This document shows, piece after piece, positions 11,034 through 35,806 of a DNA stretch of 64,000 nucleotides. A program made the position numbers and the translations under genes. The first letter of the stretch is position 1; each line of letters opens with the position of its first letter. The stretch is from an uncultured delta proteobacterium (GTDB lineage: Bacteria > Desulfobacterota > Binatia > UBA9968). The stretch lies in NCBI GenBank assembly GCA_963771465.1, contig CAVYTU010000014.1:128001-192000 (forward strand). The letters run 5' to 3'. The notes under the pieces were generated by a model that was not told the DNA's origin, ran no database searches, and was given only the letters and a program-made list of their open reading frames with translations.

Positions 11034-11047
11034 TCGCTCGCAGGAAA

Positions 11048-11142
11048 ATGGAACGAATGATGGAGTGGTGGAATTTTGGATTGACATCATAGCGGTTTAT
11101 CCGACACTGCCAGCTTCTATGCTTCCATCATTCCATTTTTCA
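11048..11142. repeat. Intergenic imperfect palindrome built from 8-nt units
   Basis: AATGATGG-AGTGGTGG-AATTTTGG arm and complementary CCATCATT-CCATTTTT arm. Confidence 0.5.
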
Positions 11143-11201
11143 GTGATTTCATCCCGTCACTTTTTAGTACTTTCCTGACGGTGTTGATTTCTTAACCGTC
11201 A

Positions 11202-12908: not shown

Positions 12909-13147
12909 CCTGGATACCGTTGTTAAACCGCCGGGCCTGCGTGAGCGAGAGCAGAACATCGTATGCCGCCTCCCGTGGTTAGAGTTTACTTTCAGAGGTA
13001 GACCGACAGCACCTCGCTAAACTGGATGAGGCAATATCCAACAGTCTGCAAAATAGGGCGTCTATTTGACCACCCCTTGACGATCACCCACCATTCGCTG
13101 TTAGATAAGGAAAATGACATCGCCAACGAGGAGGTTCGCGGGCAACA

Positions 13148-13549
13148 ATGGCTATCCCTGGTGAAAAAGCGATACAAATGGTGCGCAGCGCGCACGCTCA
13201 AGCGGCAAAGTTAGACATAGCGGTAACTGCTGTGGTGGTCGATCCAAGCGGGCGCATGATCGCCCTCGGGCGTATGGATAGGGCGCGGCCGATCACGGTG
13301 GAGATCGCCATGAACAAGGCTTACACGGCGGCAAGCTTTCAGCAGCCGACCAAAGATTTGGCCGGCGTGGCAAATCAAGCTTGGTTTCAAAGTCTGGTGG
13401 TATCGAGCAACGGCAAGGTCATGCCGGGCGGCGGCGCGGTGCCGATTAACGAAGGCGGTAACATTGTCGGCGCCATCGCGGTCTCGGGCGGCACTGACGA
13501 TCAGGATCAGCAATGCGCCGAGGTAGCGCTGGCAAACTATCAAGGGTAA
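13148..13549 (+). CDS. GlcG/HbpS family heme-binding protein
   Basis: AVVVDPSG, IAMNKAYTAA, GGGAVPI and GAIAVSGGTDDQD motifs. Confidence 0.9.
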   Translation: MAIPGEKAIQMVRSAHAQAAKLDIAVTAVVVDPSGRMIALGRMDRARPITVEIAMNKAYTAASFQQPTKDLAGVANQAWFQSLVVSSNGKVMPGGGAVPINEGGNIVGAIAVSGGTDDQDQQCAEVALANYQG

Positions 13550-13634
13550 GATAGACACAGAGAATAGAGACACCTCGCTTTCCCTTCTCGGTCTCTAGCT
13601 CGTGTCTCTACCTGATTTAACCGGAGGACCTAAA

Positions 13635-14951: not shown

Positions 14952-15520
14952 TGGCGTTTAAAATTCCCTGGTCGGGCAAAGATTCGCACCGCGACGATCC
15001 CTACTGGGATTTTTTCATTAACACGGCGCCGGCCGATCTCACCAACACGGTGACCGAGCTGATACGCAAGGCGCCGGCGGGAAATATTTTTCCAACCAAG
15101 GCAGAGCTGCACTCGCCGGAGATCACATCGAGCCACGTCAAGGGCATGGCGCAATACTTCGGCACGGAGTTGATCGGCATCACCAAGCTTGATGCCAACG
15201 ACACTGGCAATACTGACAATCTTCCATTTGCTGTCATCTGCGCCGTCCATGCCGATTACGATCCGCGCCGCTCGCCCGGTATCGGCGGACAAATGCCGGT
15301 GCAAAACGGCTTGTTCATCACCTTCGTCCTGAGTGCCTGGATTAGAGAACTCGGCTATCGCGCCATCGTCGTCCGCGACGCCGACACCGACGCGCTCGCG
15401 GCACGAGCCGGATTAGGGACCTTGAATGGCCAAGGCCGACTGGTGACCCGCGAATTCGCCGCCGACGTCTACGTCGCCGACGCCATTTATACCGACTTGC
15501 CGCTCGCCGCGGACGGCTAG
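14951..15520 (+). CDS. Short reductive-dehalogenase-fold paralogue lacking the Fe-S domain (~189 aa)
   Basis: GTG start overlaps the upstream TAG by one base. HVKGMAQYFGTELIG, WIRELGYRA, AGLGTLNGQG and YTDLPLAADG* mirror the upstream protein, and it ends where the ferredoxin domain would begin. Confidence 0.8.
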   Translation: MAFKIPWSGKDSHRDDPYWDFFINTAPADLTNTVTELIRKAPAGNIFPTKAELHSPEITSSHVKGMAQYFGTELIGITKLDANDTGNTDNLPFAVICAVHADYDPRRSPGIGGQMPVQNGLFITFVLSAWIRELGYRAIVVRDADTDALAARAGLGTLNGQGRLVTREFAADVYVADAIYTDLPLAADG

Positions 15521-15675
15521 GCCCGGCCATTGCAGATTCGATATTTCAGATTCCAAATTCCAGAAATCGATCGTCGACTTTTCACGTGATCGAACATCGC
15601 GCGAAATTCGAGCGGCCGTGCGTTCTCGCCTGAACCCGCGTTGAATCTGCATTTGGCTCGTGTACATTGTTCCAA

Positions 15676-19178: not shown

Positions 19179-20150
19179 ATGAGATGCCGCATAAATTTTA
19201 TCCTCGCGCTAATTCTTCTGCTGACGGTGAATCATCCGGCCCACGCCGCCCCCGTGCGTATCGCCTACAGTTCCATCAGCGCCGCGATGCTGCCGCTGTT
19301 CGTCGCCAAGGACAAAAAGCTTTTCGATAAATATGGCGTCGACGTCGAACTCACCTACATTCGCGGCGTCGCCATCGAAGCTTTGATCGCCGGCGAAGTG
19401 CAGTTCGTGCGCGCCTCGCCGCCATCCGTCGTTCGCTCCACCCTGCGCGGCGCCGATCTCGCCGTCATCGCCAACACCATCAACGTCCCGGTCTTCTCTC
19501 TCATGACCCGCGCCGACTTGAGACGGCCCGAAGACCTCAAAGGCAGAAAGATTGGCGTGACCGGTCTCGGCGACTCACCCGATTTCGTTCTGAGCATGAT
19601 TCTTGAAAAGTTAGGCTTTCAGCGGAGCAGCGATGTCACAGTCCTGGCGATCCGCGGCGGCATGCCCGACTTGATGATCGCCGTGAGCAAAGGCTTCGTC
19701 GACGGCGGCATGATTTCTGCGCCGAGCAATCTGCGCGGCATCAAGCTCGGTTTGCGCGAATTGATCGACTCCGCCGATCTCGGCGTGCCGTATTTAAACT
19801 CACCGATGAGCACTCGACGCGCCTACATCAAAAGCAACCGAGACACCGTGCTCAGAGTTCTCCGCGCTTATTACCAAGGCGTGCAAGAAACCCACAATGA
19901 CCGCGAAGGCAGCATGAAAATCCTCGCCAAATACACCCGCGTCACCGAGCCGGAAATCCTCGCCGAATCCTACCGCATCTATGGCCAGAGACATTTGCAG
20001 AAGTCGATCAACGTAGATTTGGACGGCGTCCGGCAACTGCTGAAGCACATCGGCAAAGACGCTGCCGGCGCAAACGCGGCAAGCTTTGTGGATGCTTCGC
20101 TCGTGCAGGAATTGGAGAAAGACGGGTTCTTTCAGCAGAAGGCACGGTGA
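19179..20150 (+). CDS. ABC transporter substrate-binding protein, NMT1/SsuA-like
   Basis: Signal peptide; LFDKYGVDVEL and DLKGRKIGV motifs. Confidence 0.88.
   Translation: MRCRINFILALILLLTVNHPAHAAPVRIAYSSISAAMLPLFVAKDKKLFDKYGVDVELTYIRGVAIEALIAGEVQFVRASPPSVVRSTLRGADLAVIANTINVPVFSLMTRADLRRPEDLKGRKIGVTGLGDSPDFVLSMILEKLGFQRSSDVTVLAIRGGMPDLMIAVSKGFVDGGMISAPSNLRGIKLGLRELIDSADLGVPYLNSPMSTRRAYIKSNRDTVLRVLRAYYQGVQETHNDREGSMKILAKYTRVTEPEILAESYRIYGQRHLQKSINVDLDGVRQLLKHIGKDAAGANAASFVDASLVQELEKDGFFQQKAR
19941..20150 (+). repeat. Copy 1 (intact, in-gene) of a ~200-bp SBP 3'-end repeat
   Basis: Aligns by eye with 26949-27154 and 33264-33461. Confidence 0.85.
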
Positions 20151-20311
20151 CTCAAGCATTCATCCCGTGCCACTGTTGAAGCTACGCTAACGGTTGAGTG
20201 CTGGGCGAGCTTGGAGTGGCCGCTTTCCGGCATGCCGAAGATAAGGTTGACAGCTGTGCCTGCGGTTGATAGCAGTGCAGTCAACCCAGCGATTCATTCC
20301 TTAATGCGACT

Positions 20312-21088
20312 ATGGAAAGCGTCGACGATAAATTTATTCTTTTCACCCAGCCCGGTTGAAGCAGTTGCCTAAGAACGAAAGAGTTTCTTTCGAAAAAAGG
20401 CATCGACTTCATCGCGCTCGATATCTTGAACGATCCAACGGCACTAGAGCGGCTGGGCAAATTCGGCGTGCGCACCGTACCGGTTTTGGCGAAAGGCGAT
20501 CAGTATATCTTTTGCCAGAACCTGGAAGATGTCGCCGAGTTCGTCGGCTTGCAAGGCAGTGGGCATACGCCGCTCCCGCCCACGGCATTGATGACGAAAT
20601 GGATCACAGTGCTACGCGCGGCCCAGCGCTACATTCGTCAAATCCCCAGCGACCGGCTGGCCGAGCGCGCGATCGATAATCGCGCTCGCTCGCTTCGACT
20701 CTTGAGCCACCACATCTTTCGCATCGGCGAAGCTTTTCTCGAAACCGCCATTGACGGCGTCGAATACCGGACCAACAATGCCAACGTCCCGCCGCCCGAG
20801 GACGGAACCTGTGCCGCCGCAGAGGAAATCGCCGCCTACGGTGACGCCGTTGTTGAGCGTCTTGAAAACTGGTGGAGCCAACTCGAGGACAAATCCTGCC
20901 AGCAACCGGTGAAAACATTCTATGGCACGCCGCCGATGCACCAGCTTTTCGAGCGCTCCACCTGGCACTCCGCGCAGCATACGCGCCAGTTGATGGCCGT
21001 GCTCGAGCGCTTCGGTATCGAGCCGCAGGGGCGACTCACGGCCGAAGATCTCGCCGGTCTGCCGTTGCCGCAAGGCCTGTGGGAATGA
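20312..21088 (+). CDS. Probable selenoprotein: glutaredoxin-like (U-S-S-C) domain fused to a DinB-superfamily domain
   Basis: ATG 20312 gives MESVDDKFILFTQPG-TGA(20357-9)-SSCLRTKEFLSKKGIDF, in frame with ORF 20426..21088. Grx cis-Pro motif RTVPV; DinB His motifs LSHHIF and WHSAQH; hairpin downstream of the UGA. Confidence 0.8.
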
Positions 21089-21319
21089 CCAAGAGATAAA
21101 CGCCTGGCCGAAAAATGTTTCGTATAGACACCAAGATTAGAATCCTGCCTTTCGATTTTCTCTAAGCAATTAATCAGCTCGTAAAATTCTCGCCAAAGTC
21201 GGCACTCTGCAAACGATCTCTGCCATTGCTTGCCGAGATTTCCTCTTGAACTCGATCGTAAGCCTGTGCCATGTTGCGCCAAAGCCGTACGGCGGCTGCT
21301 ATTCGGAAGGGACGGTCGG

Positions 21320-22786
21320 ATGGGACTGACGCAAGAAGTTGCCCACTTTGTCGCGCGGACACGCTACCGGGATATTCCCAAAGAGGTCGTCCAACTGGCG
21401 CGAGGATTCATCCTGGATGGACTCGGCGTCGCCTTGGCCGGTTCGACCGATGAGTGCTCGCGCATCGTTCAAGCACAAATCCGGCAAATGAACGGCAAGG
21501 GCGAGTCGTCGATTGTCGGCACCGCGCTCTCAGCGCCGGCAGCCAAAGCGGCTCTGGCCAACGGCGTGGCCGGCCATGCGATGGATTACGACGACACCCA
21601 ACTGTCAACTTCCAAGGAAGCCGTTTACGGTCTTTTGACGCATCCGACGACGCCTGTGCTCGCCGCCGTGTTGGCGATCGGTGAGAAAGAAAAAATCAGC
21701 GGCGAGGAATTTGTTTTGGCCTATCTCTTAGGCGTCGAAGTCGAGTGCCGTATCGCCGATGCGATCAACCCACGCCACTATCAGTCTGGTTTTCATTCCA
21801 CCGCGACCATGGGCGGCATCGGCGCCGCCATGGCGGTGGGGAAAATCCTTCGTCTCAACGAGGCGAAGTTGATGCAAACGTTGGGCATTGCCGCCAGCAT
21901 GGCGTCGGGCTTGCGCGAAAATTTCGGCACCATGACCAAGCCGCTGCACGCGGGACGCGCTGCGGAGAACGGCGTGAGCGCCGCCTTGTTGGCGCGCGAC
22001 GGCTTCACGGCGGCGGCGAATATTCTCGAAGCCCGCCGCGGCTTTTTCAACGCCATGGCCGGCGGTTGCGACGAGAGCAAGATTACCGGGCGCCTCGGTT
22101 CGCCTTACTTTATGATGGAGCCGGGAATTTCCATCAAGCCGTATCCATCCGGCTCACTCTCCCACCCGGCGCAAGATTTGATTCTCGACCTGGTCAAACA
22201 GCATGATCTTGGCGTGGACGACATCGATCACGTCGAGGTCGGCACCAATTCCAACGTGCCCAACGCGCTGATCTATCCGATGCCCAAGACCGCGCTGGAA
22301 GGTAAATTCAGCATTCCATTCTGCATGGCGATCGCTATCCTCGAGCGCAAGGCCGGCATCGCCGAGTTTCAAGACCGCAAGGTGCGCGACAAGAAGGTCG
22401 TCGAATTGATGAAGCGAGTGACGCTCTCTGTCGACGATGAACTGGAAAAGCTCGGCTACGATCAGGTGCGTTCACGGATTCGCATCGGACTGAAAAATGG
22501 CCGGGTGATCGAAGGGCGCTACGATGTCGCGCGTGGACACCCGGAGAAACCGATGAGCTGGACCGAGTTGGGCGATAAATTTCGCGACTGCGCCGGGCTC
22601 GTGCTGGCGGATAAGGACGCCGAGACGGCGATCCAATTGGTCGCCCGCATCGAAGCACTGAAAAGCTTAAGACCCCTGTTCCGCGCTCTGACCAGCGGCG
22701 GGGTGAACGCAGCCAAAAAGTCTAAAACCACAAAACGCGGCAGTCAAAAGCGCCGCGTTGAATCGGTAAGGAGGAAAAGATCATGA
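21320..22786 (+). CDS. MmgE/PrpD family protein
   Basis: ANGVAGHAMDYDD, THPT, GFHSTAT, GTMTKPLHAG and IKPYPSG motifs. Confidence 0.92.
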   Translation: MGLTQEVAHFVARTRYRDIPKEVVQLARGFILDGLGVALAGSTDECSRIVQAQIRQMNGKGESSIVGTALSAPAAKAALANGVAGHAMDYDDTQLSTSKEAVYGLLTHPTTPVLAAVLAIGEKEKISGEEFVLAYLLGVEVECRIADAINPRHYQSGFHSTATMGGIGAAMAVGKILRLNEAKLMQTLGIAASMASGLRENFGTMTKPLHAGRAAENGVSAALLARDGFTAAANILEARRGFFNAMAGGCDESKITGRLGSPYFMMEPGISIKPYPSGSLSHPAQDLILDLVKQHDLGVDDIDHVEVGTNSNVPNALIYPMPKTALEGKFSIPFCMAIAILERKAGIAEFQDRKVRDKKVVELMKRVTLSVDDELEKLGYDQVRSRIRIGLKNGRVIEGRYDVARGHPEKPMSWTELGDKFRDCAGLVLADKDAETAIQLVARIEALKSLRPLFRALTSGGVNAAKKSKTTKRGSQKRRVESVRRKRS

Positions 22787-23799
22787 GAACAAAAATTTTT
22801 CTGACACTGATCGCCTTAGGCTGCTGGCTTTCCCGTGCTGCGGCGCAAGATGCCGCGCTGGTTCAGGCGGCCAAAAAAGAAGGATTGGTGGTTTGGTACA
22901 CTTCTGTGGCGCTTCCGACCGCCACGGCAATCGCCCATGGCTTCAAGGAGAAATATACGGGAATCGACGTCGAGGTCCATCGCACGGGATCGGAGCGGGT
23001 ACTGCAAAGATTTATGCAGGAAGCGGCGGCGGGAATAAAGAACGCCGATATCATTGACACCTCCGATGCCGGTCACTTCGAGCTTCTTAAGGGCAAAGGG
23101 ATGCTGCTCAAATTCACGCCCCAGGGGGTCGCTGGTTTTTCCGACGGCTTTAAGGACAAGGCCGGCTTTTACTACGGCATGCGGTCGACACTTTCGGTCA
23201 TCGCTCACAATCCCAAGATCCTGCCCGAAAAGGACGCGCCAAAAACCTGGAAGGATCTTTTAGATCCCAGATGGAGCGGTAAGCTGGTCACTGCCCATCC
23301 GGGCTACAGCGGCATAATCGTGACTCATGTGCTGGCGCTGGTGAATCTCTACGGGTGGGACTACTTTCGCGACCTGGCGAAAAACAAATTGCATATCGTT
23401 CAGTCGGCCCTTGATCCGGCCGGTATCGTCGCATCGGGGGAGCGGCCGGTGGGGGTCAACGGCGCGGAATATTTCTATTACAGAACCCAAAAACGAGGCA
23501 ATCCGATCAAGATCATCTATCCCAAAGAGGGCGTTCCGCTCATCGTCTCGCCAGTGGCGATTGTCAAGGACGCGCCCCACCCCAACGTCGCGAAGCTATT
23601 CACCGAGTATATTTTCGCCAAACAGTCGCAGCAGTTGTTGGCGGATAAAGAAGGCCTTTATACCGGTCATCCGGACGTCACGTATCCAGCGGACAAGCCT
23701 AAGCTCAAAGATTTAAAACTTCTGCCGCCGGACGCGGCCGAGCTGGAAAAGCGCAATGCCGAAATAAAAAAACGCTTCGTTGAAATTTTCGGCGCCTAG
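22783..23799 (+). CDS. ABC transporter substrate-binding protein (Fe3+-type cluster)
   Basis: Signal peptide; AAKKEGLVVWYTS, PKTWKDLLDPRW and APHPNVAKLF motifs. Confidence 0.9.
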   Translation: MRTKIFLTLIALGCWLSRAAAQDAALVQAAKKEGLVVWYTSVALPTATAIAHGFKEKYTGIDVEVHRTGSERVLQRFMQEAAAGIKNADIIDTSDAGHFELLKGKGMLLKFTPQGVAGFSDGFKDKAGFYYGMRSTLSVIAHNPKILPEKDAPKTWKDLLDPRWSGKLVTAHPGYSGIIVTHVLALVNLYGWDYFRDLAKNKLHIVQSALDPAGIVASGERPVGVNGAEYFYYRTQKRGNPIKIIYPKEGVPLIVSPVAIVKDAPHPNVAKLFTEYIFAKQSQQLLADKEGLYTGHPDVTYPADKPKLKDLKLLPPDAAELEKRNAEIKKRFVEIFGA

Positions 23800-23813
23800 C
23801 AACGAAAACATTT

Positions 23814-25541
23814 ATGCCCGCTTCTCAAACCGGGACCCTCGATCGAGTCGGCCACGCGGGCTGGTCCGCGCTGCGATTCAAGGATCCGACCTTGCCCGTG
23901 TGGATCGGCGCGGCGCTGCTTCTAATCTTTTTGATGCTCTTGCCGCTGGGCGCAATTTTTCGCTCCAGCGTCTGGGGTGATACTGGGTTCACGTTCAGCA
24001 GATATCTTGAAGTCTTTACCAACCAACAATTTCTCAAGGCGATCTGGAACACCTTGATCATTTCCACCTGGGTGGGAGTGATCGCGGTGATCATCGGCGC
24101 TCTGCTCGCCTGGTTGGTGACGCGCACCGATTTGCCCTGGAAAAAACCGATCCGCGCGCTGGTGATGGCGTCGTTCGTGACGCCGCCGTTCCTGGGAGCG
24201 TTTGCCTGGACGTTGCTCGCCGGACCCAACGCCGGTTCGCTGAACAAACTCTACCGCGCCGTGACCGGTTCCGAAGAAGCGCTGTTCAATATATTCACCA
24301 TGCCGGGGCTGATTTTTGTCATGGCGCTCTACAGCTTCCCATTCGTTTTTTCCATGATCGCCAACGTCTGCGAGCTGATCTCGTCGGATCTTGAAGACGC
24401 CGCGGAGATATTGGGCGCGAACAAATGGCGCACGGCTTGGACCGTCACCCTGCCCTTGGCGCTGCCGGCGCTGATCAGCGGTTTCATCCTGGCTTTTCTC
24501 CAATCGCTGTCGCTCTTCGGCGCGCCGGCGATACTCGGCCTGCCCGCGGGCTTGCACACGATCACGACGCAGATCTGGACGCTGTTTCAATATCCGCCGC
24601 GCCTGGATATGGCTGCCGCTTTTTCCGTGCCGCTGCTGCTGGCGACGATGCTGTTGCTTGCCGTGCAAAAAAAAATCCTCGGGCGAAAAGGCTACAGCAC
24701 GGTGGGCGGTAAAGGCGGACAGAAACGTTTAATCCGGCTGGGCTGGGGCCGAATTCCAGTGCTGCTTCTCGTTTTTGGAATTCTTTCGCTCTCAGTCTTC
24801 TTGCCTTATTGGATTCTGCTTAAAGCGGCGCTCTCCAAAGCCTGGGCGCTGCCGTTAACCTGGGATAATTTTACGCTGCACAACGTTTACTTTAGTTTTT
24901 TCGAGTACGGCGATACTCAACTGGCGATCTACAATACGTTTAAATTGGGACTGATCACGGCGACCGTCGGCACGCTGTTGGCGACGCTCATCGCTTACAT
25001 CACCAATCGCAATCTGTTTCGCGGCGCGCGCTATCTGAGTTTTTTCGCGCTGGCGCCGCTGGTGATTCCCGGTATTGTTTTGGCCGTCGGTCTGTTCATC
25101 GTCTACACTCGGCCACCGCTGGTGCTCTACGGCACCCTATGGATTCTTTTCGTGGCTTTTTTAACTAAAGAAATGCCGATTGGATTTTCCCAGGCAGAGT
25201 CCACCTTCAAGAGCATTCACCCGGAGCTCGAAGATGCCAGCCGGATTATCGGCGCCAACCGGCTCATGTCCCTCAAAGATGTAACCGCGCCGCTGGCGCG
25301 CTCCGGACTGATCGCCGGGTGGTCTTTTATCTTCATCGGCGTCATCCGTGAGCTCAGCACCGCAATCCTGTTATTCGCGCCCAAGTCGAAAGTTGTTTCG
25401 GTGGTCATCTTCGATCTGAAAGAAGAAGGACAAGTGGGAGTTATCGCCGTTTTAGGAATTCTTTTGCTGGTGGTTTCCTTCGCGGTCATACTTGCGGTCC
25501 AGTGGTTCGGGGGACGGGACGTGATGGCGACGCGGGAATAG
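23814..25541 (+). CDS. ABC transporter permease, FbpB-like
   Basis: Two EAA-type loops (LEDAAEILGA, LEDASRIIGA); many TM helices. Confidence 0.92.
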   Translation: MPASQTGTLDRVGHAGWSALRFKDPTLPVWIGAALLLIFLMLLPLGAIFRSSVWGDTGFTFSRYLEVFTNQQFLKAIWNTLIISTWVGVIAVIIGALLAWLVTRTDLPWKKPIRALVMASFVTPPFLGAFAWTLLAGPNAGSLNKLYRAVTGSEEALFNIFTMPGLIFVMALYSFPFVFSMIANVCELISSDLEDAAEILGANKWRTAWTVTLPLALPALISGFILAFLQSLSLFGAPAILGLPAGLHTITTQIWTLFQYPPRLDMAAAFSVPLLLATMLLLAVQKKILGRKGYSTVGGKGGQKRLIRLGWGRIPVLLLVFGILSLSVFLPYWILLKAALSKAWALPLTWDNFTLHNVYFSFFEYGDTQLAIYNTFKLGLITATVGTLLATLIAYITNRNLFRGARYLSFFALAPLVIPGIVLAVGLFIVYTRPPLVLYGTLWILFVAFLTKEMPIGFSQAESTFKSIHPELEDASRIIGANRLMSLKDVTAPLARSGLIAGWSFIFIGVIRELSTAILLFAPKSKVVSVVIFDLKEEGQVGVIAVLGILLLVVSFAVILAVQWFGGRDVMATRE

Positions 25542-25544
25542 CTC

Positions 25545-26633
25545 ATGGCCATAGTTTCGATACGAGGGCTGACTAAAAAATTCGCCGACGCCGCCGCGGT
25601 CGACGATCTCCATTTGGACATCGGCGACGGCGAATTCGTGTCGCTGCTCGGTCCGTCCGGTTGCGGCAAGACCACGACGCTAAGATTGCTCGCCGGCTTC
25701 TTGCAGCCCGACGGCGGGGACATCCGCGTCGGGGGTGAAGTTGTTTCATCGCCGTCCATCCTGGTACCGCCGGAGCGGCGCAACATGTCGATGATCTTTC
25801 AAAGCTACGCCGTCTGGCCGCACATGACGGTGGCGCAAAACGTCGCCTATGGCCTCAAATTCAAAAAACTTACGAAACAAGAAATCTCGGCGAAAGTTGC
25901 CACGCTGCTTGGCGTCGTGCGCTTGGCGGAGTTGAAAGATCGCTATTCCGCGGAGCTGTCCGGTGGCCAGCAGCAGCGGGTAGCGTTGGCGCGGGCGTTG
26001 GTGGTCGAGCCGCAGATTCTTTTAATGGATGAGCCACTGAGCAACCTCGACGCCAATCTGCGCGAAGAGATGCGCTTCGAGATCCGCCGGCTGCATGAAG
26101 AATTCAAAATTACCACCATCTATGTCACCCACGATCAGTCGGAGGCGATGGCGACCTCGGACCGGATCGCCGTGCTCAATCGCGGCCGTCTAGTTCAGGT
26201 CGGACCGCCGGCGGAAATATTCGACCGGCCGAAAACCCGGTTCGTTGCGGAGTTTGTCGGCAAAGCGAATATCTTGAGTGGACGCCTCGACGGCGATGGC
26301 CGGTCAATTCTATCCGACGGCGTAAAAATTCGCCTGGCTGACGGCGGCGATGTCGCGCCGGCGAGCGAAGTGTCGGTGTGCTTGCGTCCGCATAATATCC
26401 AGCTGGTCGCCGGGCAAGAAGCAGCGCGGCAGCTGACCGATCAAGGTTACAATCTCTTCTCCGGTGTCATTCGCCGCTCGATCTATTTCGGTGACGCGGT
26501 CGATTATACGGTCGAACTCCCTTCGGGGAGAATTTTACACGTCATCGCGCCGCCGTCCCAACGATTCGAGCCCGGCCAATCGATATGCGCGGCAGCCGAT
26601 CCCGAAAATTGCGTCGTCGTGCGTGAAGATTGA
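25545..26633 (+). CDS. ABC transporter ATP-binding protein (FbpC/PotA-like, C-terminal TOBE)
   Basis: GPSGCGKT, LSGGQQQR, LLMDEPLSNLD and YVTHDQ motifs. Confidence 0.95.
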   Translation: MAIVSIRGLTKKFADAAAVDDLHLDIGDGEFVSLLGPSGCGKTTTLRLLAGFLQPDGGDIRVGGEVVSSPSILVPPERRNMSMIFQSYAVWPHMTVAQNVAYGLKFKKLTKQEISAKVATLLGVVRLAELKDRYSAELSGGQQQRVALARALVVEPQILLMDEPLSNLDANLREEMRFEIRRLHEEFKITTIYVTHDQSEAMATSDRIAVLNRGRLVQVGPPAEIFDRPKTRFVAEFVGKANILSGRLDGDGRSILSDGVKIRLADGGDVAPASEVSVCLRPHNIQLVAGQEAARQLTDQGYNLFSGVIRRSIYFGDAVDYTVELPSGRILHVIAPPSQRFEPGQSICAAADPENCVVVRED

Positions 26634-26639
26634 CGCGGC

Positions 26640-26795
26640 ACAGCCGCAATTGAAATTCGGATTATCTCGCGCGAAGCATGTCCTGAGCGAGGTCGAAGGG
26701 ACGCAAAGACCGCAAAGGTCATAACGGTAAAAAAATTCTCCAGACAATTCATCTCTTGCCTCCGAACCTGGCGTGATTTGCGCCTTGGCGGGAGT
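26640..26795. repeat. Composite REP-like intergenic element
   Basis: CGCAAAGACCGCAAAG arm and TTTGCGCCTTGGCG counter-arm, with a nested GTCCTGAGCGAGGTCGAAGG unit. Confidence 0.55.
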
Positions 26796-26948
26796 CAATT
26801 CCCCGTGCTCCAGTATTCCAGATCACTGGTAAATTTGCTCCTTTCCGCAGATGCCCGGCGGCCGGTTGTTGTAGGGGAAGGATTCGGGTAGAAATTGTCA
26901 GGCTTTGGTTTCGATTCATCGTCTCTGCCCAACTAGAATAAGCAATTC

Positions 26949-27154
26949 GTCAGCGAACCAGAAATCCTCGCCGAATCCTACCGCACGGCCAGAAACATCT
27001 GCAGAAATCGATCAACGTCGATTTGGAAAACGTCAGACAACTGCTAAAAACTCTCGGTAAAGAAGCCGCTGGCACAAACGCGAGCCAGTTTGTCGACCCG
27101 TCGTTGGCGCAGGAATTGGAACGCGAAGGCTTATTTCAGAGCAAAAATCGCTGA
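26949..27154 (+). pseudogene. Copy 2: orphan 3'-end fragment of an SBP allele related to 19179..20150
   Basis: Translates to VSEPEILAESYR-(5-nt deletion)-GQKHLQKSINVDLENVRQLLKTLGKEAAGTNASQFVDPSLAQELEREGLFQSKNR*. Confidence 0.85.
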
Positions 27155-27209
27155 TCTCGATTGACACCCAAACAAAGCGGTGCCGCTGGTTATCGAAGCT
27201 ACGATACAT

Positions 27210-27237
27210 TTGACCAAGGTAAGGCAATGCTGATAAT
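27210..27237 (+). promoter_or_regulatory. Putative sigma70 promoter of the Rieske/TTT operon
   Basis: TTGACC-16 nt-GATAAT, about 65 nt upstream of ATG 27301. Confidence 0.4.
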
Positions 27238-27300
27238 TTCCCTTTTGAATTCATTCTCATTGAAAGTATTTTATCGATCTTCAACTAACCCGAGTCGCAC

Positions 27301-28625
27301 ATGCTTTCACAGCAAGAAAATGAACTCCTCACTAGGGTGGGCCCCGGCACGGTGATGGGCGAATTCATGCGGCAATATTGGCTGCCCGCGCTCTTATCAA
27401 AGGAACTGCCCGAGCCGGACGGACAGACCGTGCGGGTTCGTCTCCTGGGAGAAAACTTGGTGGCGTTTCGCGATAGCCATGGCAATCCTGGCATGCTAGG
27501 CGCACACTGCCCGCACCGCGGCGCGCCGCTATTTATGGCCGTAATGAAGCGGGCGGCCTGAGATGCGTTTACCATGGCTGGAAATTTGACATCGGCGGGC
27601 AGTGCGTCGATATGCCCAACGAGCCGCCGGAAACGGTATTCAAGGATAAGATTCGCCACAAATCCTATCCCTGCCGCGAGTATGCCGGCGTCATTTGGGT
27701 TTACATGGGCACGCTCGCTACGCCGCCGCTCCCGGAACTGGAATGGACCTTGGTGCCGGATGAAAATCGTTATCTCGCTAAGCGGGTGCAAAATTGCAAC
27801 TTCGCGCAGGCGCTGGAGGGCGAAATCGATCAGAGCCACAATTCCTTCCTGCACGCCCCCGGTAGCCAGCTCAAACCCGAGGTTTTCGACGGCACCACTG
27901 ATGTCGAACTCTGGCGCAAACGGGATACCCACCCGCACTTTTCCGCCTTCGATACCAACTACGGCGTGTTGATCGGCGCGCGGCGCGACATCGATGAAGT
28001 GAATTGTTATTGGCGCCTGACCCAATTCCTGCTGCCCTTTTACGTCATGACCGGTCCCTACGGCGAGAATCCAACGCGCCACACGCGCATGTGGGTGCCG
28101 ATGGATGATGACACGACGATGTTGGTTGCGTGCAATTTTCATCCGCTGAGACCGCTCACCGAGCAGGAGATCGACCGGCTGCAGCGCGGTTCGGGCGCGG
28201 GATTTGTCGGCACGGATCATTTCCTCCCGACGGACAGCTCACCCGGCGGCGCTTGGCGGCCCAAGGCGAGCCGAGAGAATGATTTTTTCTTTGATCGCGA
28301 ACTACAACGCACGAAATTTTTCTCGGGCATTCGGAGTTCTGGGCGCAGGATGCGGCGGTGCAGGAAGGCATGGGGCCGATTTACGATCGCACCCAAGAGC
28401 ACCTGGGGACAACCGACATCGGCATCATCCATTTCCGCAAGCGTTTGATCGATAGCGCCACAGCCTTGCGCGAGAGCAAGACCGTGTCACCGAGCGCTGT
28501 TGATCCCTCAATGTATCGGGTGCGCGGCGCCGCGGCGCTCTTGGCCAAAAACGCTGACTGGATCGAAGCTACTGAAGAAATCCGCAAAGTCACCCGGCAC
28601 CAACCCCGCAGGACCGGGACGCTGA
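27301..28625 (+). CDS. Rieske non-heme iron oxygenase, phthalate 4,5-dioxygenase-like (three apparent frameshifts, ~27533, ~28332, ~28593)
   Basis: ENELLTRVGPGTVMG, Rieske CPHRG...CVYHGW, mononuclear Fe EGEIDQSHNSFLH, and QDAAVQEGMGPIYDRTQEHLG across the shifted frames. Confidence 0.88.
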
Positions 28626-28652
28626 GCGCGAAACAGTTAAAAGGAACCGTCT

Positions 28653-29736
28653 ATGAATCGTCGCCCGGATCGCAAAACAATCCTTGCTCGCGCCATTATA
28701 TTGGGCCAGCTAGTGTCGCTCTTGATCGTCGCGCCGTCTTGGTCCGCGGACGTTGGGCAATACTTCACCGGCAAGACACTCAAGATCGTCGTCGGCTACG
28801 CGCCCGGCGGCGGCTACGATACTATCGCGCGCTTGTTCGCCGTGCACTTTCACAAACACCTGCCGGGCCAACCGCTGATTCAAGTCGTCAACATGCCGGG
28901 CGCGGGATCTGAAATTGGCTTGCGCTACGTCATGAAGGCGAAAGCCGATGGCCTGACGATACTCAACATGCCGAAAGTTTTTATGATTCGCGAACTCCTC
29001 GGCGAAGATATCAAGGAGTTCGATTACCAGCGCGCTCTCTACCTCGGCCAGCCCGACGCTGTCGCGGACGCCGGCGTGCTGATGGCGCGAACCCAGATCG
29101 CGACTTCGTGGAAAGAGATCGCCAATCGCGGCAAACCAGCGACCAACGGCGAGACCGAAGTCGGCACCTCGGTGAGCATTCCAGCGGCCTGGCTCGAACT
29201 CATCGGCGCACCGATCAAAAACGTCTACGGTTACGGCGGCGGATCGGAAGTTCTAGGCGCGTTCAATCGCGGCGAACTCGATCTGACGACGCGAGCCAGC
29301 GAGATCGCGCTGATCAAGCGCAGCTTTCCCGAATGGCTCGAAAAAAAACCGGCGTATCTTACACCCATCGTGCGCTGGCGCGGCTTGCTCGGCAAGGACT
29401 TCCTGGAGGCTGGCAAGTGGCCGCAGCCTCCCGACATTTTTGAAGTCGCCAAAGGAACCGAAGCTCAACGGGCGGCGCTGGAAGCCTGGATGGAGGTTGG
29501 GGACCGGATCAAAAGTATTTACGCTGCCGCCCGGCGTCCCCGCCGATACTTATCAGGCACTTAAAAAATCTTTCGAGGCCACTGTCGCCGATCCCGCCTT
29601 CGTCAAAGACGCCACTGCGCGCGGCATCGACGTAACCCTCTTAAAAGCAGAAAATCTGATGACGTCGGTGAAGAAGGTTACGACTGCTTCTGACGAAGTG
29701 CGGCAAATTCTTCGAAAGCTCTACACCGGCAAATAG
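28653..29736 (+). CDS. tctC: Tripartite tricarboxylate transporter substrate-binding protein (TctC/Bug), frameshift ~29512
   Basis: VVGYAPGGGYD, NMPGAG and GYGGG motifs; the C-terminus LPPGVP...DPAF is in the shifted frame. Confidence 0.82.
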
Positions 29737-29848
29737 CTTAGCTTTGCCGCTAAAAGCGAGCTATCCGGACCGGTTTCACGCCGCGCAATTCCCAGACCAC
29801 TGCATTGTATCAGCGGTAAAATAGCCACCACACCGCGGGAGAATCAAT

Positions 29849-31975
29849 TTGATCGACGCCTACTTCGACGCCGCGGCTAAGCTCTTCACGCTCTGGCCGA
29901 TGTTCGCGCTCCTCCTCGGCGTCACCATCGGACTAGTCAACGGCGCCTTGCCGGCCGGCGGCAGCATCCCGCTGTTGATCATCTTGATGGGTTTTGCCTA
30001 CGGCATGGACCCCGCCGTCGCTATTCCATTGGTGATCGGCGCCATGGCGGTGAACGGCACCACGGATCCGATACCGTGCATCCTGCTGGGAATTCCCGGA
30101 TCGGCCTCAGCCCAAGCGACCGTCCTCGACGGCCACCCGTTGGCCCAGCAAGGGCGCGCGGGCTACGCATTGAGCGTGGCTTACACCAGCTCTCTGATCG
30201 GCGGTTTGATCGGCGCCGTCGCCTTAGCGTTGTTCGTGCCGGTGGCACGGAGTTTTCTAACCTTGTTCGGCTCGGTAGAGTTTTTTGCTTTAGCTCTGAT
30301 CGGAATCGCCATCGTCGGCGTGGTCAGCACCGGCGCGATGATCAAAGGACTTCTCGGCGCCGCCTTCGGTCTGGCCATCGCGTTGATCGGCGTCGACCCG
30401 ATTACCGGTACCGAGCGCTTGGTCGCGGTGGAATATCTTTGGGAAGGAATTCCGCTGGTGCCAGCGATTGTCGGCTTATTTGCCATCCCGGAGATTCTCG
30501 ATCTTGTGGTCAGCGATCGACCGATCGCGCGTAAAGCGCTGGATCTGGAAAAGGTGCAAGCCGACATTCGTAGCCAGCGCGGCGAGGGCATTCGCGAGAC
30601 CTTTCGCCACAAGTTTTTAGTATTGCGCGCCTCGCTGATCGGTCTGTTTGTCGGCATGATGCCTGGCGTCGGCGGTTCGGTGGCACATTGGCTCGCCTAC
30701 GCGCAGGCGCGCCAAACCGAGAAAGGCGCGTTCAAGACTTTCGGCACCGGCGACATCAGAGGCGTGATCGCGCCGGAAAGCGCGAACAATTCAATCGACG
30801 CCGGGGTCCTCATGCCGACGGTGGCTTTTGGCATCCCGGGCAGCGGCCAGATGTCGATCTTTCTTGGTTTTCTCATCCTGCTCGGATTGCAGCCCGGACC
30901 GGCGATGTTGAACCAGCATTTGCATCTGACTTTGCTGATGGCATGGTCGTTGGCGGTCGCCAACGTGATTGCCACGGTGGTAGCGCTCTACTACACGCCG
31001 CAACTGGCGCGCATCGCCGCGATGAATCCCAACGTGCTGGCGCCGATCGTTTTGGCAATGTTGTTTCTCTCGGGATTTCAGAGCAATCGCTCCATGGGCG
31101 ATCTCGTCTTGATGTGTCTGTTGTTCGCCGTCGGCTGGTTCATGAAGCGTTACGGTTGGCCCCGTGTGCCGATCATCCTCGGCTTGGTTCTCGCCGAGCC
31201 GCTGGAGAAATATATGTGGCTCTCGCTTAATACCTATGGTGTAACGATGCTCGCCCGACCCCAGGTTTGGATCATTTCCGCTCTCGCGCTGTCATCATTG
31301 TTGTTATCATTACGCGCCCAGCGCGCCACCCGAAGCATCGACATTGCTAGCTCGGTGACTTCAGAAAATGAGCGCTCAACCCCCGAGCCTCGTCAAGGAG
31401 ACAATAGTTACGATGCGCCGGCATCGGGCGTACTTCGCCGCGACGCTTTGAAAGCGAAAAGAATCTCGCTCACGACCACTCTCGAGTCGCTTTTCCTGGC
31501 AGCTAATTTTGCTCTGTTTATCTATTTCATCGTCGCAGCGCGAAACTGGCCGCTTTCGGCGGCGCTGCTGCCGCGCCTGGTTGGCGCCGCCGGCTTGGTT
31601 CTTCTCGCCTGCTTTCTCATCCAGAAAGCCGTAGGCACAGCGCGCGGCGTAACCGAAGGTGGCATCCTCGATATCGGCTTTCGGGATTCTGATCTCACCC
31701 ACGATGAAATCACTCGGCGAATTCTCCGCGTCGTGGGATCGATGGCTGCCCTGCTCGCCGGCGTTTGGCTAGTTGGGTTTCATATAACGATCCCGCTCTA
31801 TTTGTTGGTTTACTGCACGGTGTTCGGCGCCATGCAGTGGCGCAACGCATTTCTGATCGCAGCCGGTTTTGAAGTTTTCATCGTCGGCGTTTACGATATG
31901 CTGGTTCATGTAATTTGGAACGAACCACTCCTGTTGAAACTCGCCGCGGTTGTAGAGCTGCCGATGTTCCGTTAA
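29849..31975 (+). CDS. tctA: Tripartite tricarboxylate transporter permease TctA with fused C-terminal TctB-like domain
   Basis: GIPGSASAQATVLDGHPLAQQG, GVIAPESANN and AFGIPG motifs; about 200 extra aa with TM helices after a polar linker. Confidence 0.85.
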   Translation: MIDAYFDAAAKLFTLWPMFALLLGVTIGLVNGALPAGGSIPLLIILMGFAYGMDPAVAIPLVIGAMAVNGTTDPIPCILLGIPGSASAQATVLDGHPLAQQGRAGYALSVAYTSSLIGGLIGAVALALFVPVARSFLTLFGSVEFFALALIGIAIVGVVSTGAMIKGLLGAAFGLAIALIGVDPITGTERLVAVEYLWEGIPLVPAIVGLFAIPEILDLVVSDRPIARKALDLEKVQADIRSQRGEGIRETFRHKFLVLRASLIGLFVGMMPGVGGSVAHWLAYAQARQTEKGAFKTFGTGDIRGVIAPESANNSIDAGVLMPTVAFGIPGSGQMSIFLGFLILLGLQPGPAMLNQHLHLTLLMAWSLAVANVIATVVALYYTPQLARIAAMNPNVLAPIVLAMLFLSGFQSNRSMGDLVLMCLLFAVGWFMKRYGWPRVPIILGLVLAEPLEKYMWLSLNTYGVTMLARPQVWIISALALSSLLLSLRAQRATRSIDIASSVTSENERSTPEPRQGDNSYDAPASGVLRRDALKAKRISLTTTLESLFLAANFALFIYFIVAARNWPLSAALLPRLVGAAGLVLLACFLIQKAVGTARGVTEGGILDIGFRDSDLTHDEITRRILRVVGSMAALLAGVWLVGFHITIPLYLLVYCTVFGAMQWRNAFLIAAGFEVFIVGVYDMLVHVIWNEPLLLKLAAVVELPMFR

Positions 31976-31986
31976 TGGGAGAAACT

Positions 31987-33202
31987 ATGGCGACGACAAA
32001 TGACAGAATTCTTAATTTCGGCATCGTTGGTTTGGGGCGCGCGGCAACCTCTATGCTGCCGAGTCTGGTCAACCATCCGCAAGTTAAATTGATTGCCGCC
32101 GCCGATTTGCGCGCCGAGGCGCTGGAAAAGTTCCGCGGCGAATTTGACGCCGAGGTCTACCGCGACGCCGAGGAGCTTTTTCGCAATCAGAACATCGACG
32201 CCGTCTACATTGCCACACCGCACCAATGCCATGCCGAACATGTCATCATGGCGGCGACCTACGGCAAACACGCCATCGTCGAGAAGCCCATGGCGCTCAC
32301 GCTCGCAGACTGCGATAACATGATCGCGGCCGTCGACCGCGCCGGCATCCGGCTTGTGGTCGGCCATACTCACTCCTTCGATCCCCCGATATTAAAAATT
32401 CGCGAGATCGTCCGCAACGGCGAATTGGGCGGCTTCAAGATGATGCACACCTGGCGCTTTACCAACTTTCTCTACCGACCGCGCCGCCCCGAAGAGCTGG
32501 ACACTAGTCTCGGCGGCGGCATTTTGTTCAATCAGGTGCCGCACCAGATCGACATGATCCGTTGGATCGGCGGCGGTCGAGTGCGTAGCGTGCGCTCGAT
32601 GACCGGAGTTTGGGACTCATCGCGCCCAACCGAAGGCGCCCACGCAACTTTCTTGGAATTTGTCGACGGCGCCGCCGCGACCCTCGTTTATAATGCCTAC
32701 GATCACTTCGACAGCGATGAATTGACCGGTTGGATCGGCGAGGGCGGCGAGCGCAAGCGACCCGATCGACAAGGCGAAGCGCGCCGCACTGCTAAGGGAA
32801 GCAAAGAATTCCGCCGACGAAGCGAACCTCAAAGCCGCCACCGGATACGGTGGGCGCCAACAGCGCCGGGCCGCTGTTGGCGCTGTTGAACGCGAGCGTT
32901 ACCATCCTCATTTCGGCGTCACGCTAGTGAGCTGTGAACACGGCGACCTTCGCCCACAGCCCAACGGCGTGTTCATTTACGATGATCATGGCAAGAGAGA
33001 AATTCCGGTGCCCTTGGGTCGAGCCGTGCCGGACAAAGGGAAAGTCGTCGATGAATTGTACGACGCGGTCGTCAACGACCGTCCCGTCCGTCATAACGGC
33101 CGCTGGGGTAAGGCAACGCTAGAAGCTTGCCTGGCGATTCAACAATCGGCCCGCGAGCGAAGAGAAATCATACTATCGCACCAAGTGCCGACCGGGGATT
33201 GA
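31987..33202 (+). CDS. Gfo/Idh/MocA oxidoreductase, phthalate cis-dihydrodiol dehydrogenase-like (frameshift ~32785)
   Basis: GIVGLG, ATPHQCH, VEKPMA and FLYRPRRPEELDT..GGG...NQVPHQID motifs; C-terminus SCEHGDLRP...WGKATLEAC in the shifted frame. Confidence 0.85.
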
Positions 33203-33263
33203 GCGACGCGAATGGAATTGCTGCGCCAAGCGCCCGCGATGTTGTGACCATTGTGGATCGACT

Positions 33264-33461
33264 GAAAGCCTCGCTGAATTCTACCGCACCTACGGCCAGA
33301 AACATTTGCAGAAAACGATCACCGCCGACCTGGATGGCGTCCGGCAACTATTGCGAACTCTGGGGAAAGAAGCCGCCGGCGCAAATGCCAGTCAATTCGT
33401 CGATCCGTCGTTGGTGCAGGAATTGGAGAAGGAAGGTTTGTTTCAGAGAAGAACCCGCTGA
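33264..33461 (+). pseudogene. Copy 3: orphan 3'-end fragment of the same SBP family allele
   Basis: Translates in frame to ESLAEFYRTYGQKHLQKTITADLDGVRQLLRTLGKEAAGANASQFVDPSLVQELEKEGLFQRRTR*; the 5' part of the gene is missing. Confidence 0.85.
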
Positions 33462-33489: not shown

Positions 33490-33784
33490 TTATTCGCCAC
33501 CCTTTTTATTCTCAGGTTGGCTCGATTGAACTATCGAACCGCATTCGGGACATTGGAAACGGTCCTGGAGATATGCCTCAAAGCGAAGACCGGTATCCTG
33601 GCCAAAATATGGCGCGTGGCAGGTAATGAGTTGTCCGGTGAAGCTTATATCCTCAAGCAGTCCGCACTGTCGGCATTCAAGCAGTTCGCGATCATCCATG
33701 AACAATTCAAGATCTGACCGCCTTTGCCCGCAATGCGACAATGCGCGAGGCAATTTGGCGAATGTTGTACTGTATATGACTCAT
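33490..33784 (-). CDS. Small zinc-ribbon hypothetical protein (probable frameshift ~33718)
   Basis: MSHIQYNIRQIASRIVALRAKA joins, after removing one base, to DLELFMDDRELLECRQCG...FQCPECG (two CxxC). Confidence 0.5.
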
Positions 33785-33906
33785 TTCACGTTTGGCTATA
33801 GTGCGTTTGCAGCAGACGTTGCAAGAGATTCGGCTACTCACAACTAGTTTCTACCTTCCACGATATCGAGCAACCGTTTCTTGGACAGCATGCCGTTGAG
33901 CGACAC

Positions 33907-34455
33907 TTACGCATCTACTCGTCCCATTTCCTTTCCGTCGTTGCACTTCCACTCGGCGAAGTGTCCCAATAACTGGTGAACGATCGTAGCGGTCGAAAGC
34001 GTTGGGCCACAAATTTGATAGTCTCCTCCCTGCGCTTTGATCAAAGTATTCAGGGCCGGATTTCGTCCGGATTCCATTCCCGCCGAGATGAAGTTTGATG
34101 GCACCAAGTATAATCCACGCCACACCCGAGCGATGAGTCCCGCTTTGCCAGTCCGCTGAGTAGCTTCCGCTCCTGTATTGCAGATAACTGTAGCGGCTTG
34201 GTAAGTTGACCAGTTCGTACTGTATGCAAGCCCCGCGGCGAAGCCAGAACCATGAAAAAGATCCCAGCTCGTATTGCGAAGACTGTCTTCGGTTTTGCTG
34301 CTGGGGATCAAAGCGCAATAAAATCCTAGGCTGTGATCTTTTTCGCTCGAACTCGAATAGACAGTAAAAAATTCAGTTATGCTAAAATCTCTTCTGATTT
34401 CAGCAAGCACTTTCGTCTGTGATAGACGCTCCAGTTCGACCTTAATAGGACTAAT
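33907..34455 (-). pseudogene. Decayed AT-richer hypothetical gene fragment(s)
   Basis: The 167-aa frame 33907..34410 extends upstream without a start codon; composition differs from the flanks. Confidence 0.35.
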
Positions 34456-34595
34456 AGTGGAATTTCTCCGCTCATCAGCCTAGGCAAAAGCAAGTCACGC
34501 ACAGCGCGGAGTTTATCGTTTTGGGCGCCTAGGTTGTCTTTCTGTGCAAACAATGGACTCACAAACTCATCAAAAATTGAAATCAACTTCTTCAG
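34455..34595 (-). pseudogene. hsdS: Type I restriction-modification specificity subunit (HsdS) C-terminal remnant
   Basis: FDEFVSPLF...QNDKLRAVRDLLLPRLMSGEI is the characteristic HsdS C-terminal helix; the rest of the gene is missing. Confidence 0.75.
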
Positions 34596-34769
34596 GAAAC
34601 GAGAATCTCTAACCGATGTACTGCCTTTCGATCAAGGCTCGGAACTGACACGTCGCCATTGTACTGCTTAAGATCCATTTCGCTGAGTATTCGAGTGTTG
34701 GCTATTTAGCGCGGATCTTACGCGATGGCACGGCAAGCTGACAAGAGCGAGACTACAAGCACAACAAAC

Positions 34770-34803
34770 AAAAAACGGGGCGCGATGAATCGCGCCCCGT
34801 TTT
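34770..34803. terminator. Intrinsic terminator after etfA (possibly bidirectional)
   Basis: AAAAAACGGGGCGCGAT-GA-ATCGCGCCCCGTTTT perfect hairpin flanked by A/T tracts. Confidence 0.85.
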
Positions 34804-34837
34804 ACTTTGAGTCTTTTACTACAGTTGAATGCCGAAC

Positions 34838-35806
34838 CTATGCGCCTTTGCGCTTCTTCAATTCTTCGATCAACTGCGGCACGACTTTGAAGAGGTCGCC
34901 GACCACGCCGAAGTCGGAGTATTGAAAGATCGGGGCTTCGGCGTCTTTGTTGATGGTGATGATGTATTTGGAAGTCTTCATGCCGGAGAGATGTTGCACG
35001 GCGCCGGAGATGCCGACGGCGAAATAAATATCCGGTTTTACGGTTTTGCCGGTCTGGCCGACCTGCATGGCGTAGGGCACCCAACCGGCATCGACCGCGG
35101 CGCGACTGGCGCCGACGGCGCCGCTGAGCACATCGGCGAGCTCTTTGAGCATGTTGAATTGCTCTTCGCCCTTGAGGCCGCGGCCGCCGGAGACGACGAT
35201 TTTGGCACCTTCGAGCGATGGCCCTTCGCGTTTGACGACGACGCGCTCTTTCAGGTGCACTTTGCGCAGGCCGTTGTCTGGCGGTGCGGCAACTTCTTCA
35301 AGCGCCAGCGGCTGTTCGTTGAGCTTGGGGTCGAAAGATTTCGGCCGCACGACGAGAAGCTTGGTTCCAGCATGGAGCAGCGTGCTGGTGTTTTGATAAC
35401 TCGCACCGAGCGCAGGAATGGTCGCTTCGACGCTGCCGTCTTTCAATTGGAAATCGCCGACGTCGGTGATCGCGCCGCAGTCGAGCCGCGCGCTCAAATT
35501 GGCGACCAGGTCGCGGCCCGAGTAACTCGACGCAAACAGCATCACCGCCGGTTGGTGTTTCTCAATCAAGCCGGCAACCGTTTCGGCAGCTGGTAAAGTG
35601 AGAAAATCTTTGTACGCCGCATCGGCCGAGCGGTAGATTTTGCTCGCGCCATGGTTGGCAAGCATCTGCGCCGCATCGTCCGGCGCGGGACCGAGCAAAA
35701 TGGCTTCGGCTTTGCCGACTTCCGCCGCCTTGGTGAGCATCTCCAAGCTGGTGGCGGTAATCCGATCGTCGTTAACTTCTGCGTATACCCAGATAGTGTC
35801 CGCCAC
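34838..35806 (-). CDS. etfA: Electron transfer flavoprotein alpha subunit
   Basis: [25 protein letters not shown] and [12 protein letters not shown] motifs. Confidence 0.96.

Follow-up and report, generated by a model that had tools for sequence, protein, structure and literature searches.

Orphan 3' ends of a binding-protein gene bracket successive cargo blocks at a transfer hotspot in an uncultured Binatia genome

The closest described counterparts of the locus analyzed here are the rhs loci, in which homologous recombination with a circle shunts the old gene end downstream (tip displacement; Jackson et al. 2009, PMC2935791), tandem arrays of cis-mobilizable and integrative mobilizable elements (CIME and IME; PMC5704250), the icd/icdC pair around prophage e14 (PMC13626634), integrase-free hotspots (Oliveira et al. 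2017, PMC5635113), and the immunity arrays of type VI secretion systems (T6SS) in Vibrio cholerae (Kirchberger et al. 2017, PMC5361080); PMC5361080 and PMC2884548 give accounts of anchored illegitimate recombination. Our comparisons draw on parts of these papers. The locus lies in a 64,000-nucleotide stretch of DNA from an uncultured delta proteobacterium of the Binatia (contig CAVYTU010000014.1, positions 128,001 to 192,000; hereafter the window, in which all positions are counted), where an intact gene for an NMT1/THI5-like ATP-binding cassette (ABC) substrate-binding protein is followed by two orphan copies of its own 3' end, with blocks of cargo genes between and behind them. It is a displacement or accretion array like known ones, in a new form, seen in one genome. 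The feature is real, while its mechanism leans toward homology-driven capture and is not settled.

As in the rhs arrays of PMC2935791, an intact gene is followed by same-strand orphan 3' pieces with genes between them and no integrase. Unlike in those arrays, the tails are homologous in all copies, and there is no variable toxin tip, immunity gene, or Rhs core; the copies are 77% identical, whereas those in the example given in that paper are near-identical (91.6% at the amino acid level), and the cargo consists of 1 to 6 kb of metabolic or defense genes, in an array found in 1 of 14 loci. On these likenesses the locus may work most like rhs tip displacement, but it is no rhs array. With the CIME and IME tandems (PMC5704250) it shares tandem cargo at a gene 3' end and an integrase that is possibly lost, and with icd/icdC (PMC13626634) a protein-coding target whose C-terminal part recurs as a pseudogene copy, together with chimeric alleles from recombination between copies. 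The displaced target fragment that both have at the far end of the cargo is present here (copies 2 and 3 below), but, unlike in the parts of those reports drawn on, no integrase, shared element end, or base-exact start was found here, nor is an intact element present in related loci. Conserved flanks, cargo turnover, a mosaic flanking gene, and the lack of mobility genes are also features of integrase-free hotspots (PMC5635113); the double-crossover replacement described there, however, leaves no duplicated ends, and so fits 13 related loci but not the stack. Finally, the T6SS arrays (PMC5361080) likewise grow by sequential insertion from one anchored side without an integrase, pushing older material back, sometimes with a displaced 3' end, but their toxin-immunity pairs are selected to keep old immunity genes, and no such selection is evident here. 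A literature search, whose scope left out most subscription papers and supplements, found no description of this locus.

Extent and divergence of the repeated gene end

The intact gene (19179..20150, + strand; 323 aa; PF09084, E 7e-22) forms the left anchor of the hotspot. Self-blastn of the window gave three strong matches, all among the 3' end of this gene (copy 1, 19940..20150) and two orphans (copy 2, 26948..27154, and copy 3, 33264..33461), covering 197 to 211 nt at 77.2 to 77.8% identity with E values of 6e-35, 8e-34, and 1e-38; the two remaining self-matches were weak (E 1e-5) and joined cupin paralogues. All three copies lie on the + strand and run to the stop codon, as an earlier note on this DNA had described, and the window contains no N. 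That note had also seen the orphans begin at nearly the same point. The starts are indeed close, but they are not base-exact: with a profile from 14 alleles, copy 2 spanned 26948-27154 and copy 3 about 33262-33461, and leftward log-odds placed their starts at the equivalents of 19940 and 19951-19953, respectively, 11 to 13 nt apart, so that there is no base-exact common junction. The reading frame of copy 3 stays open as far as its stop, while that of copy 2 is disrupted by a 4-nt deletion after 26984, at a site that is no homopolymer.

The ratios of nonsynonymous to synonymous divergence (dN/dS, Nei-Gojobori) were 0.24 for copies 1 and 2, 0.17 for copies 1 and 3, and 0.11 for copies 2 and 3, and the orphans therefore derive from once-functional alleles of other lineages, the earlier note having taken them for former functional alleles; dS among the three copies was 0.73 to 1.02, about the depth between related species. 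At conserved columns, copy 2 carried one private change and copy 3 two (99 of 119 full-length alleles carried none and 20 at least one), and amino acid decay is thus slight.

Two shorter sequence features within the repeat bear on how the copies arose. A 12-nt stretch at 20105..20116 (+) is the only run of at least 8 nt common to all three copies and makes a candidate crossover region. An imperfect direct repeat at 19918..19979 (+; 19/23 nt, period 36), of putative role, is the best 23-nt repeat pair within the gene, and the orphan starts sit on its borders, copy 2 where unit 1 ends and copy 3 where unit 2 begins; the same pair scores 10 to 18 of 23 in 13 relatives. A common element arm ahead of the orphans was rejected, since the upstream DNAs show no relation (1249 of 2000 shuffles gave at least their score), and an inverted repeat (26876-26896 and 26962-26982, 76%) was put at chance level by a hand estimate.

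Behind copy 1 lies block A (20312..26633, +), which holds a selenocysteine glutaredoxin-DinB fusion, MmgE/PrpD, and an ABC binding protein, permease, and ATPase, all with intact frames. Copy 2 is followed by block B (27301..33202, +; a promoter-like site at 27210-27237, +, stands ahead of it) with a LigXa-like Rieske oxygenase, a TctC-like protein, TctA, and a Gfo/Idh/MocA dehydrogenase. Behind copy 3 comes block C (33493..34631, -), comprising a zinc-ribbon open reading frame (ORF), an ORF without a family, and a C-terminal piece of a type I restriction-modification specificity subunit (HsdS). Family scans bore out the gene contents that the earlier note had given for blocks A and B, and the HsdS piece is the restriction-modification debris that it had reported behind copy 3. 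The TctC label has no Pfam match; we take it from a sequence motif and the neighboring TctA gene. Block B has four frameshifts (two in the Rieske oxygenase and one each in the TctC-like and Gfo/Idh/MocA genes), all within short homopolymer or dinucleotide runs and with no nonsense substitution seen, which may reflect decay or uncorrected sequencing errors. Damage thus grows with distance from the intact gene, from intact block A through frameshifted block B to the debris of block C.

The horizontal-transfer hotspot in related genomes

A scan of species-representative genomes returned 22 loci, 13 of them close (69 to 89% amino acid identity; labeled Candidatus Binatia, uncultured deltaproteobacteria, and two others), while nine distant ones (L014-L022, 22 to 32% identity) were excluded from all site comparisons. 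In the related loci the binding-protein gene is syntenic, following pyruvate kinase, cupin, and TenA genes. The interval behind it, up to the electron transfer flavoprotein (ETF) alpha gene etfA, differs widely: etfA follows after 66 nt in L008, 208 nt in L001, and 333 nt in L009, and after 626 nt with a short ORF lacking a family in L010. Other cargo fills six loci (a quinone oxidoreductase and more in L002 and L003, a luciferase-like gene in L004, a YgjP-like gene in L005, cupin and chromate transporter genes in L006, HsdR and an S_4TM effector in L011), two carry block A (followed by MazF in L012 and by a dehydrogenase in L013), and L007 has a different neighbor, anthranilate synthase; the 13 relatives thus comprise three short gaps, six with other cargo, two with block A, one short ORF, and one different neighbor. 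In L011, a type I HsdR, the S_4TM effector, and a fragment that weakly matches (E 0.003) a cyclase of cyclic oligonucleotide-based antiphage signaling (CBASS) occupy 10997-15552 (-), where the contig ends; the organism label of L011 differs from the labels of its tree neighbors.

Block A is 85 to 94% identical in nucleotides to its counterparts at the same site in L012 and L013. Against L012 its dS was 0.19 to 0.43, compared with 0.70 to 0.97 for five core segments, and against L013 it was 0.28 to 0.55 in four of five genes and 1.04 in one, compared with a core of 0.69 to 1.27. The varied cargo and the low dS of block A relative to the core therefore show that the interval from the binding-protein gene to etfA is a horizontal-transfer hotspot and that block A was acquired laterally. 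The accretion hotspot and lateral cargo proposed in the earlier note thus held, empty and alternatively filled states both being present among the relatives. At this hotspot, recombination in the flanking DNA would ordinarily swap one cargo for another, but in this genome cargo was probably added, not replaced, at least twice.

The array itself is known from 1 of 14 loci, and block B was not found beside the binding-protein gene in the 13 relatives. The conserved right flank of the array comprises a terminator-like hairpin and the ETF alpha gene (34772..35806, -). The hairpin resembles that of L001 and L004, unlike that of L012 or L013; the flank therefore looks native, and the additions would have entered from the left. 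Family scans found no integrase or recombinase family among the window's ORFs or among those scanned from the intervals of the relatives (44 of 107 listed were scanned together, the rest being alternative frames or genes in other scans), in keeping with the earlier note, which had seen none. The window gave no tRNA, tmRNA, or Rfam match, and the gene end had no match in phages and plasmids.

Candidate mechanisms for the stack

We tentatively put first, with somewhat more doubt than confidence, the reading that the stack was built by sequential single-crossover capture of circles bearing a gene tail and cargo. A circle from a related lineage would have joined roughly the last 200 nt of the gene to the donor lineage's cargo, and a single homologous crossover with the resident gene inside this shared stretch, probably toward its far end (about 20065-20116), would have kept the gene whole with its host front part, placed the incoming cargo directly behind it, and displaced the donor front with the old tail downstream as an orphan ahead of older cargo. 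We infer a capture order of C, then B, then A, with circular intermediates and homologous crossover near the far end of the repeat; an integrase would be unnecessary, and the internal direct repeat is a candidate for circle closure near 19940-19953.

Evidence on which copy is foreign came from trees of the repeat, which grouped copies 2 and 3 with L002, L003, L012, and L013 (support 82/95; 89/96 for the first 150 nt alone) and left copy 1 outside this group, where the 5' part of the gene also falls. With the first 150 nt of the repeat, the approximately unbiased (AU) test rejected copy 1 with L012 and L013 (p 0.022) and copies 2 and 3 with L001 (p 0.004). An integrase cut at the orphan start would mean that the intact gene carries the donor's whole tail; its ancestry instead seems unchanged at that point, and the first 150 nt there look host-like. 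Compared with L012, copy 1 had 38 mismatches and copy 2 had 26 over nt 1-150, and 8 and 16, respectively, over nt 151-198; compared with L001, copy 1 was nearer in front (27 versus 34 mismatches) and the tails were equal. The DNA past the stop of copy 1 is common to the window, L012, and L013. In permutation tests, a switch from copy-2-like to copy-1-like sequence was found at p<0.05 in 5 of 13 loci, always in the same direction and at positions 20063-20104, those of L012 and L013 lying at 20102-20104, just ahead of the 12-nt stretch. Among database proteins, P0001 combined a copy-2 front (36/39) with a copy-1 tail (23/24), P0023 a copy-1 front (36/39) with a copy-2 tail (19/24), and P0098 a copy-3 front (34/41) with a copy-2 tail (20/24). 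Such front and tail mixes and the direction of the switch are what one crossover within a circle-borne repeat predicts.

Several points weigh against this reading. Copies that are 77% identical are a poor substrate for homologous recombination, and no circle has been observed. Two independent starts would fall within 13 nt of each other with a chance of 0.03 to 0.07, which circle capture leaves unexplained. The AU test kept a wider group of copy 1 with L002, L003, L012, and L013 (p 0.074), and the groups were picked after a tree had been seen. The switch signal is directional but weak: 7 of 39 nucleotide tests reached p<0.05 and none did after correction, L012 and L013 do not count as independent loci, and tests of copies 1 and 3 gave nothing significant; in the protein tests, 29 of 374 gave p<=0.05 and 6 gave p<=0.01, near chance. 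Protein P0028 matches copy 1 over its whole length (63/65 aa), which fits a swap of the whole allele from an unsampled donor, unless P0028 descends from a post-capture state. Deletions at the locus also leave 3' ends: of the FMN-dependent hydroxy-acid dehydrogenase behind block A, a whole gene in L013, only the last 42 nt are left in the window (26831..26874, +; 88%, E 9e-9 against L013 19159-19200). A second copy of the gene end was also found by tblastn, blastn, and nhmmer in none of the 13 close relatives, including the two with block A.

A wider version of circle capture, which we regard as doubtful, would have Binatia-like bacteria exchange cassettes population-wide without an integrase, by circles holding the last 200 to 250 nt of the gene with metabolic or defense cargo. 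Circles would loop out of arrays, cross species, and re-enter through a single crossover in the conserved 12-nt stretch close to the stop codon, and the tail of a housekeeping-type gene would serve as a reusable attachment site, like an rhs tip but with whole operons; P0003, P0010, P0020, and P0023 would be orphans of other arrays. P0020 and P0023 (63 aa) start at residue 261 with fronts that resemble copy 1, and the two show no difference until after the shared 12-nt stretch. In the short proteins P0003 and P0010, a 14-aa leader that is not from a binding protein (8/14 identical) precedes different C-termini, with the junction at about residue 239 in both, and these may be orphans that arose at one common junction in other genomes; searches of the window and loci gave the leader no significant match (best E 0.33). 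P0021 was rejected as an orphan, reading as a frameshift product, and P0009 probably likewise by eye.

The earlier note had offered such single-crossover capture, which we keep as the best reading, beside integration at a fixed site that swaps the whole C-terminus in each event, which found no support. The orphan starts differ and their upstream DNA is unrelated, and among 58 proteins scanned none of the 56 significant breakpoints in 1639 pairs fell at residues 240-279. At the protein level, P0028 is closest both before and after the orphan start (96%, 95%, and 100%), copy 1 is rejected from the L012 and L013 group as given above, and a displaced copy occurs in 0 of 13 relatives. Of the 56 breakpoints, 35 fell in the 280-299 bin, where the top rows were P0085 and P0090, both with aberrant ends, and congruence with the remainder of the protein was no lower for the C-terminal segment (0.64) than for other segments (0.49 to 0.73).

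These results also bear on a tandem accretion of site-specific integrative elements, with an icd/e14-type target and CIME-type decay, which is possible but rather unlikely. An integrase would have cut at the orphan start or in the shared 12-nt stretch, each element would have restored the gene, and the integrase genes would since have been deleted or have acted in trans. This is a known process (as parts of PMC5704250 and PMC13626634 describe it), and it would account for orphan starts that nearly coincide, for one 12-nt stretch identical across the three copies, for the P0003 and P0010 leaders joined at the same residue, and for defense cargo directly behind the gene's 3' end in the window, L005 (YgjP-like), and L011 (HsdR and S_4TM), with MazF after block A in L012. 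Five of the 13 related loci stop before the far flank is seen, and an integrase could lie beyond. The family scans, however, gave no integrase or recombinase, the displaced copy is absent from all eight loci that reach the conserved downstream genes, and third-position identity near the orphan starts (0.70 to 0.74) is within the range of the gene (0.48 to 0.82). Inexact starts and unrelated upstream DNA also argue against such elements, although later erosion could hide a junction, as do the lack of a breakpoint cluster at residues 240-279 and the constant ancestry across the orphan start. For a donor of the L012 or L013 type, an element allele beginning at the orphan start is rejected, while a P0028-type donor or a crossover at 20105-20116 is compatible with the data.

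Also improbable, though to be reckoned with, is a linear donor anchored by homology upstream in the gene with an illegitimate far junction (homology-facilitated illegitimate recombination), which would make copy 1 the complete allele of a donor and the two orphans complete earlier residents, or larger tandem insertions trimmed by deletion to the last 200 nt. The intact gene is a mosaic allele whose segment trees disagree: residues 231-320 group with P0028 (97/96) and residues 25-230 with P0029, P0031, and P0032 (82/90), residues 111-170 being nearest P0031 and P0032 (97%). This mosaicism favors anchored insertion, as do the match of P0028 to all of copy 1, the 82.5% identity to copy 2 of P0098, a near full-length protein that ends like copy 2, and the dehydrogenase reduced by deletion to its 3' stub, and the internal repeat could have biased the junctions. 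The process has been proposed for the T6SS immunity arrays, in a paper (PMC5361080) that, in the part drawn on, also calls it rare. It does not predict the reciprocal front and tail pattern against L012 and L013, requires two junctions within 13 nt, and is at odds with the rejection of the front of copy 1 from the only known block-A carriers. Among longer proteins, the best match to copy 3 over its whole length reached 80%. P0098 has a 15-aa internal in-frame deletion and P0027 lacks most of the protein, and both are joined at short repeated motifs.

An assembly chimera, with alternative strain haplotypes of a variable locus joined end to end, is very improbable. Block A and other cargo are alternatives at the site in relatives, the array is in one genome only, and the frameshifts of block B in short runs resemble, by inference, those of poorly covered long reads; but each orphan already differs from copy 1 in its first 13 nt, which leaves no shared word from which graph branches could start, neither block A nor block B terminates in the ETF-side hairpin, and the 4-nt deletion of copy 2 lies outside a homopolymer in a window free of N gaps. 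An origin of the orphans from full-length paralogues or recent within-genome duplications is largely refuted and hardly credible, since, although the window contains two other NMT1-family genes, the orphans fall within the orthologous alleles of this single locus, a dS near 1 excludes recent duplication, and no relative has a second copy, nor the full-length paralogues at the orphan positions for which the earlier note had proposed to look.

Neighboring features and biological meaning

The glutaredoxin-DinB fusion gene of block A (20312-21088, +) contains an in-frame UGA within a U-x-x-C motif, which is kept in both relatives with the fusion (L012, about 11250-11980; L013, about 11080-11854). 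The DNA past the UGA hardly varies among the three genomes, and it can form a hairpin (z -2.4; 5 of 200 shuffles did as well), as would be expected of a selenocysteine insertion signal. Our literature search found no description of the fusion. Short repeats of the type at 26634-26800 flank block A genes and differ between genomes; we tentatively take these, and similar intergenic DNA of L002, L012, and L013, to be repetitive extragenic-type sequences. In block C, where G+C is lower (0.48 for 34001-35000), the HsdS piece matched 12 plasmid records (best E 7e-6), 9 of 10 among the matches listed being annotated as subunit S, and the ORF at 33910-34410 had no Atlas match.

Elsewhere in the window, an ABC permease gene is apparently split in two overlapping ORFs (62643-64000, -, at about 63300), a possible frameshift outside block B. 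Two overlapping ORFs at 13602-15520 (+) gave Fer4 matches only and are presumably reductive dehalogenase-like or epoxyqueuosine-reductase-like 4Fe-4S proteins.

Integrases are absent from many transfer hotspots, and double-crossover replacement accounts for their turnover, but not for their growth. This locus records additive events at an integrase-free hotspot, with a dated gene end marking each step. Should it prove to be a decayed integrase array, it would add an unusual target gene and little else. If the circle model is true, tip displacement would extend from toxin genes to catabolic operons, and soil or sediment bacteria would have a testable route by which to stack aromatic-degradation and defense modules without mobile-element genes.

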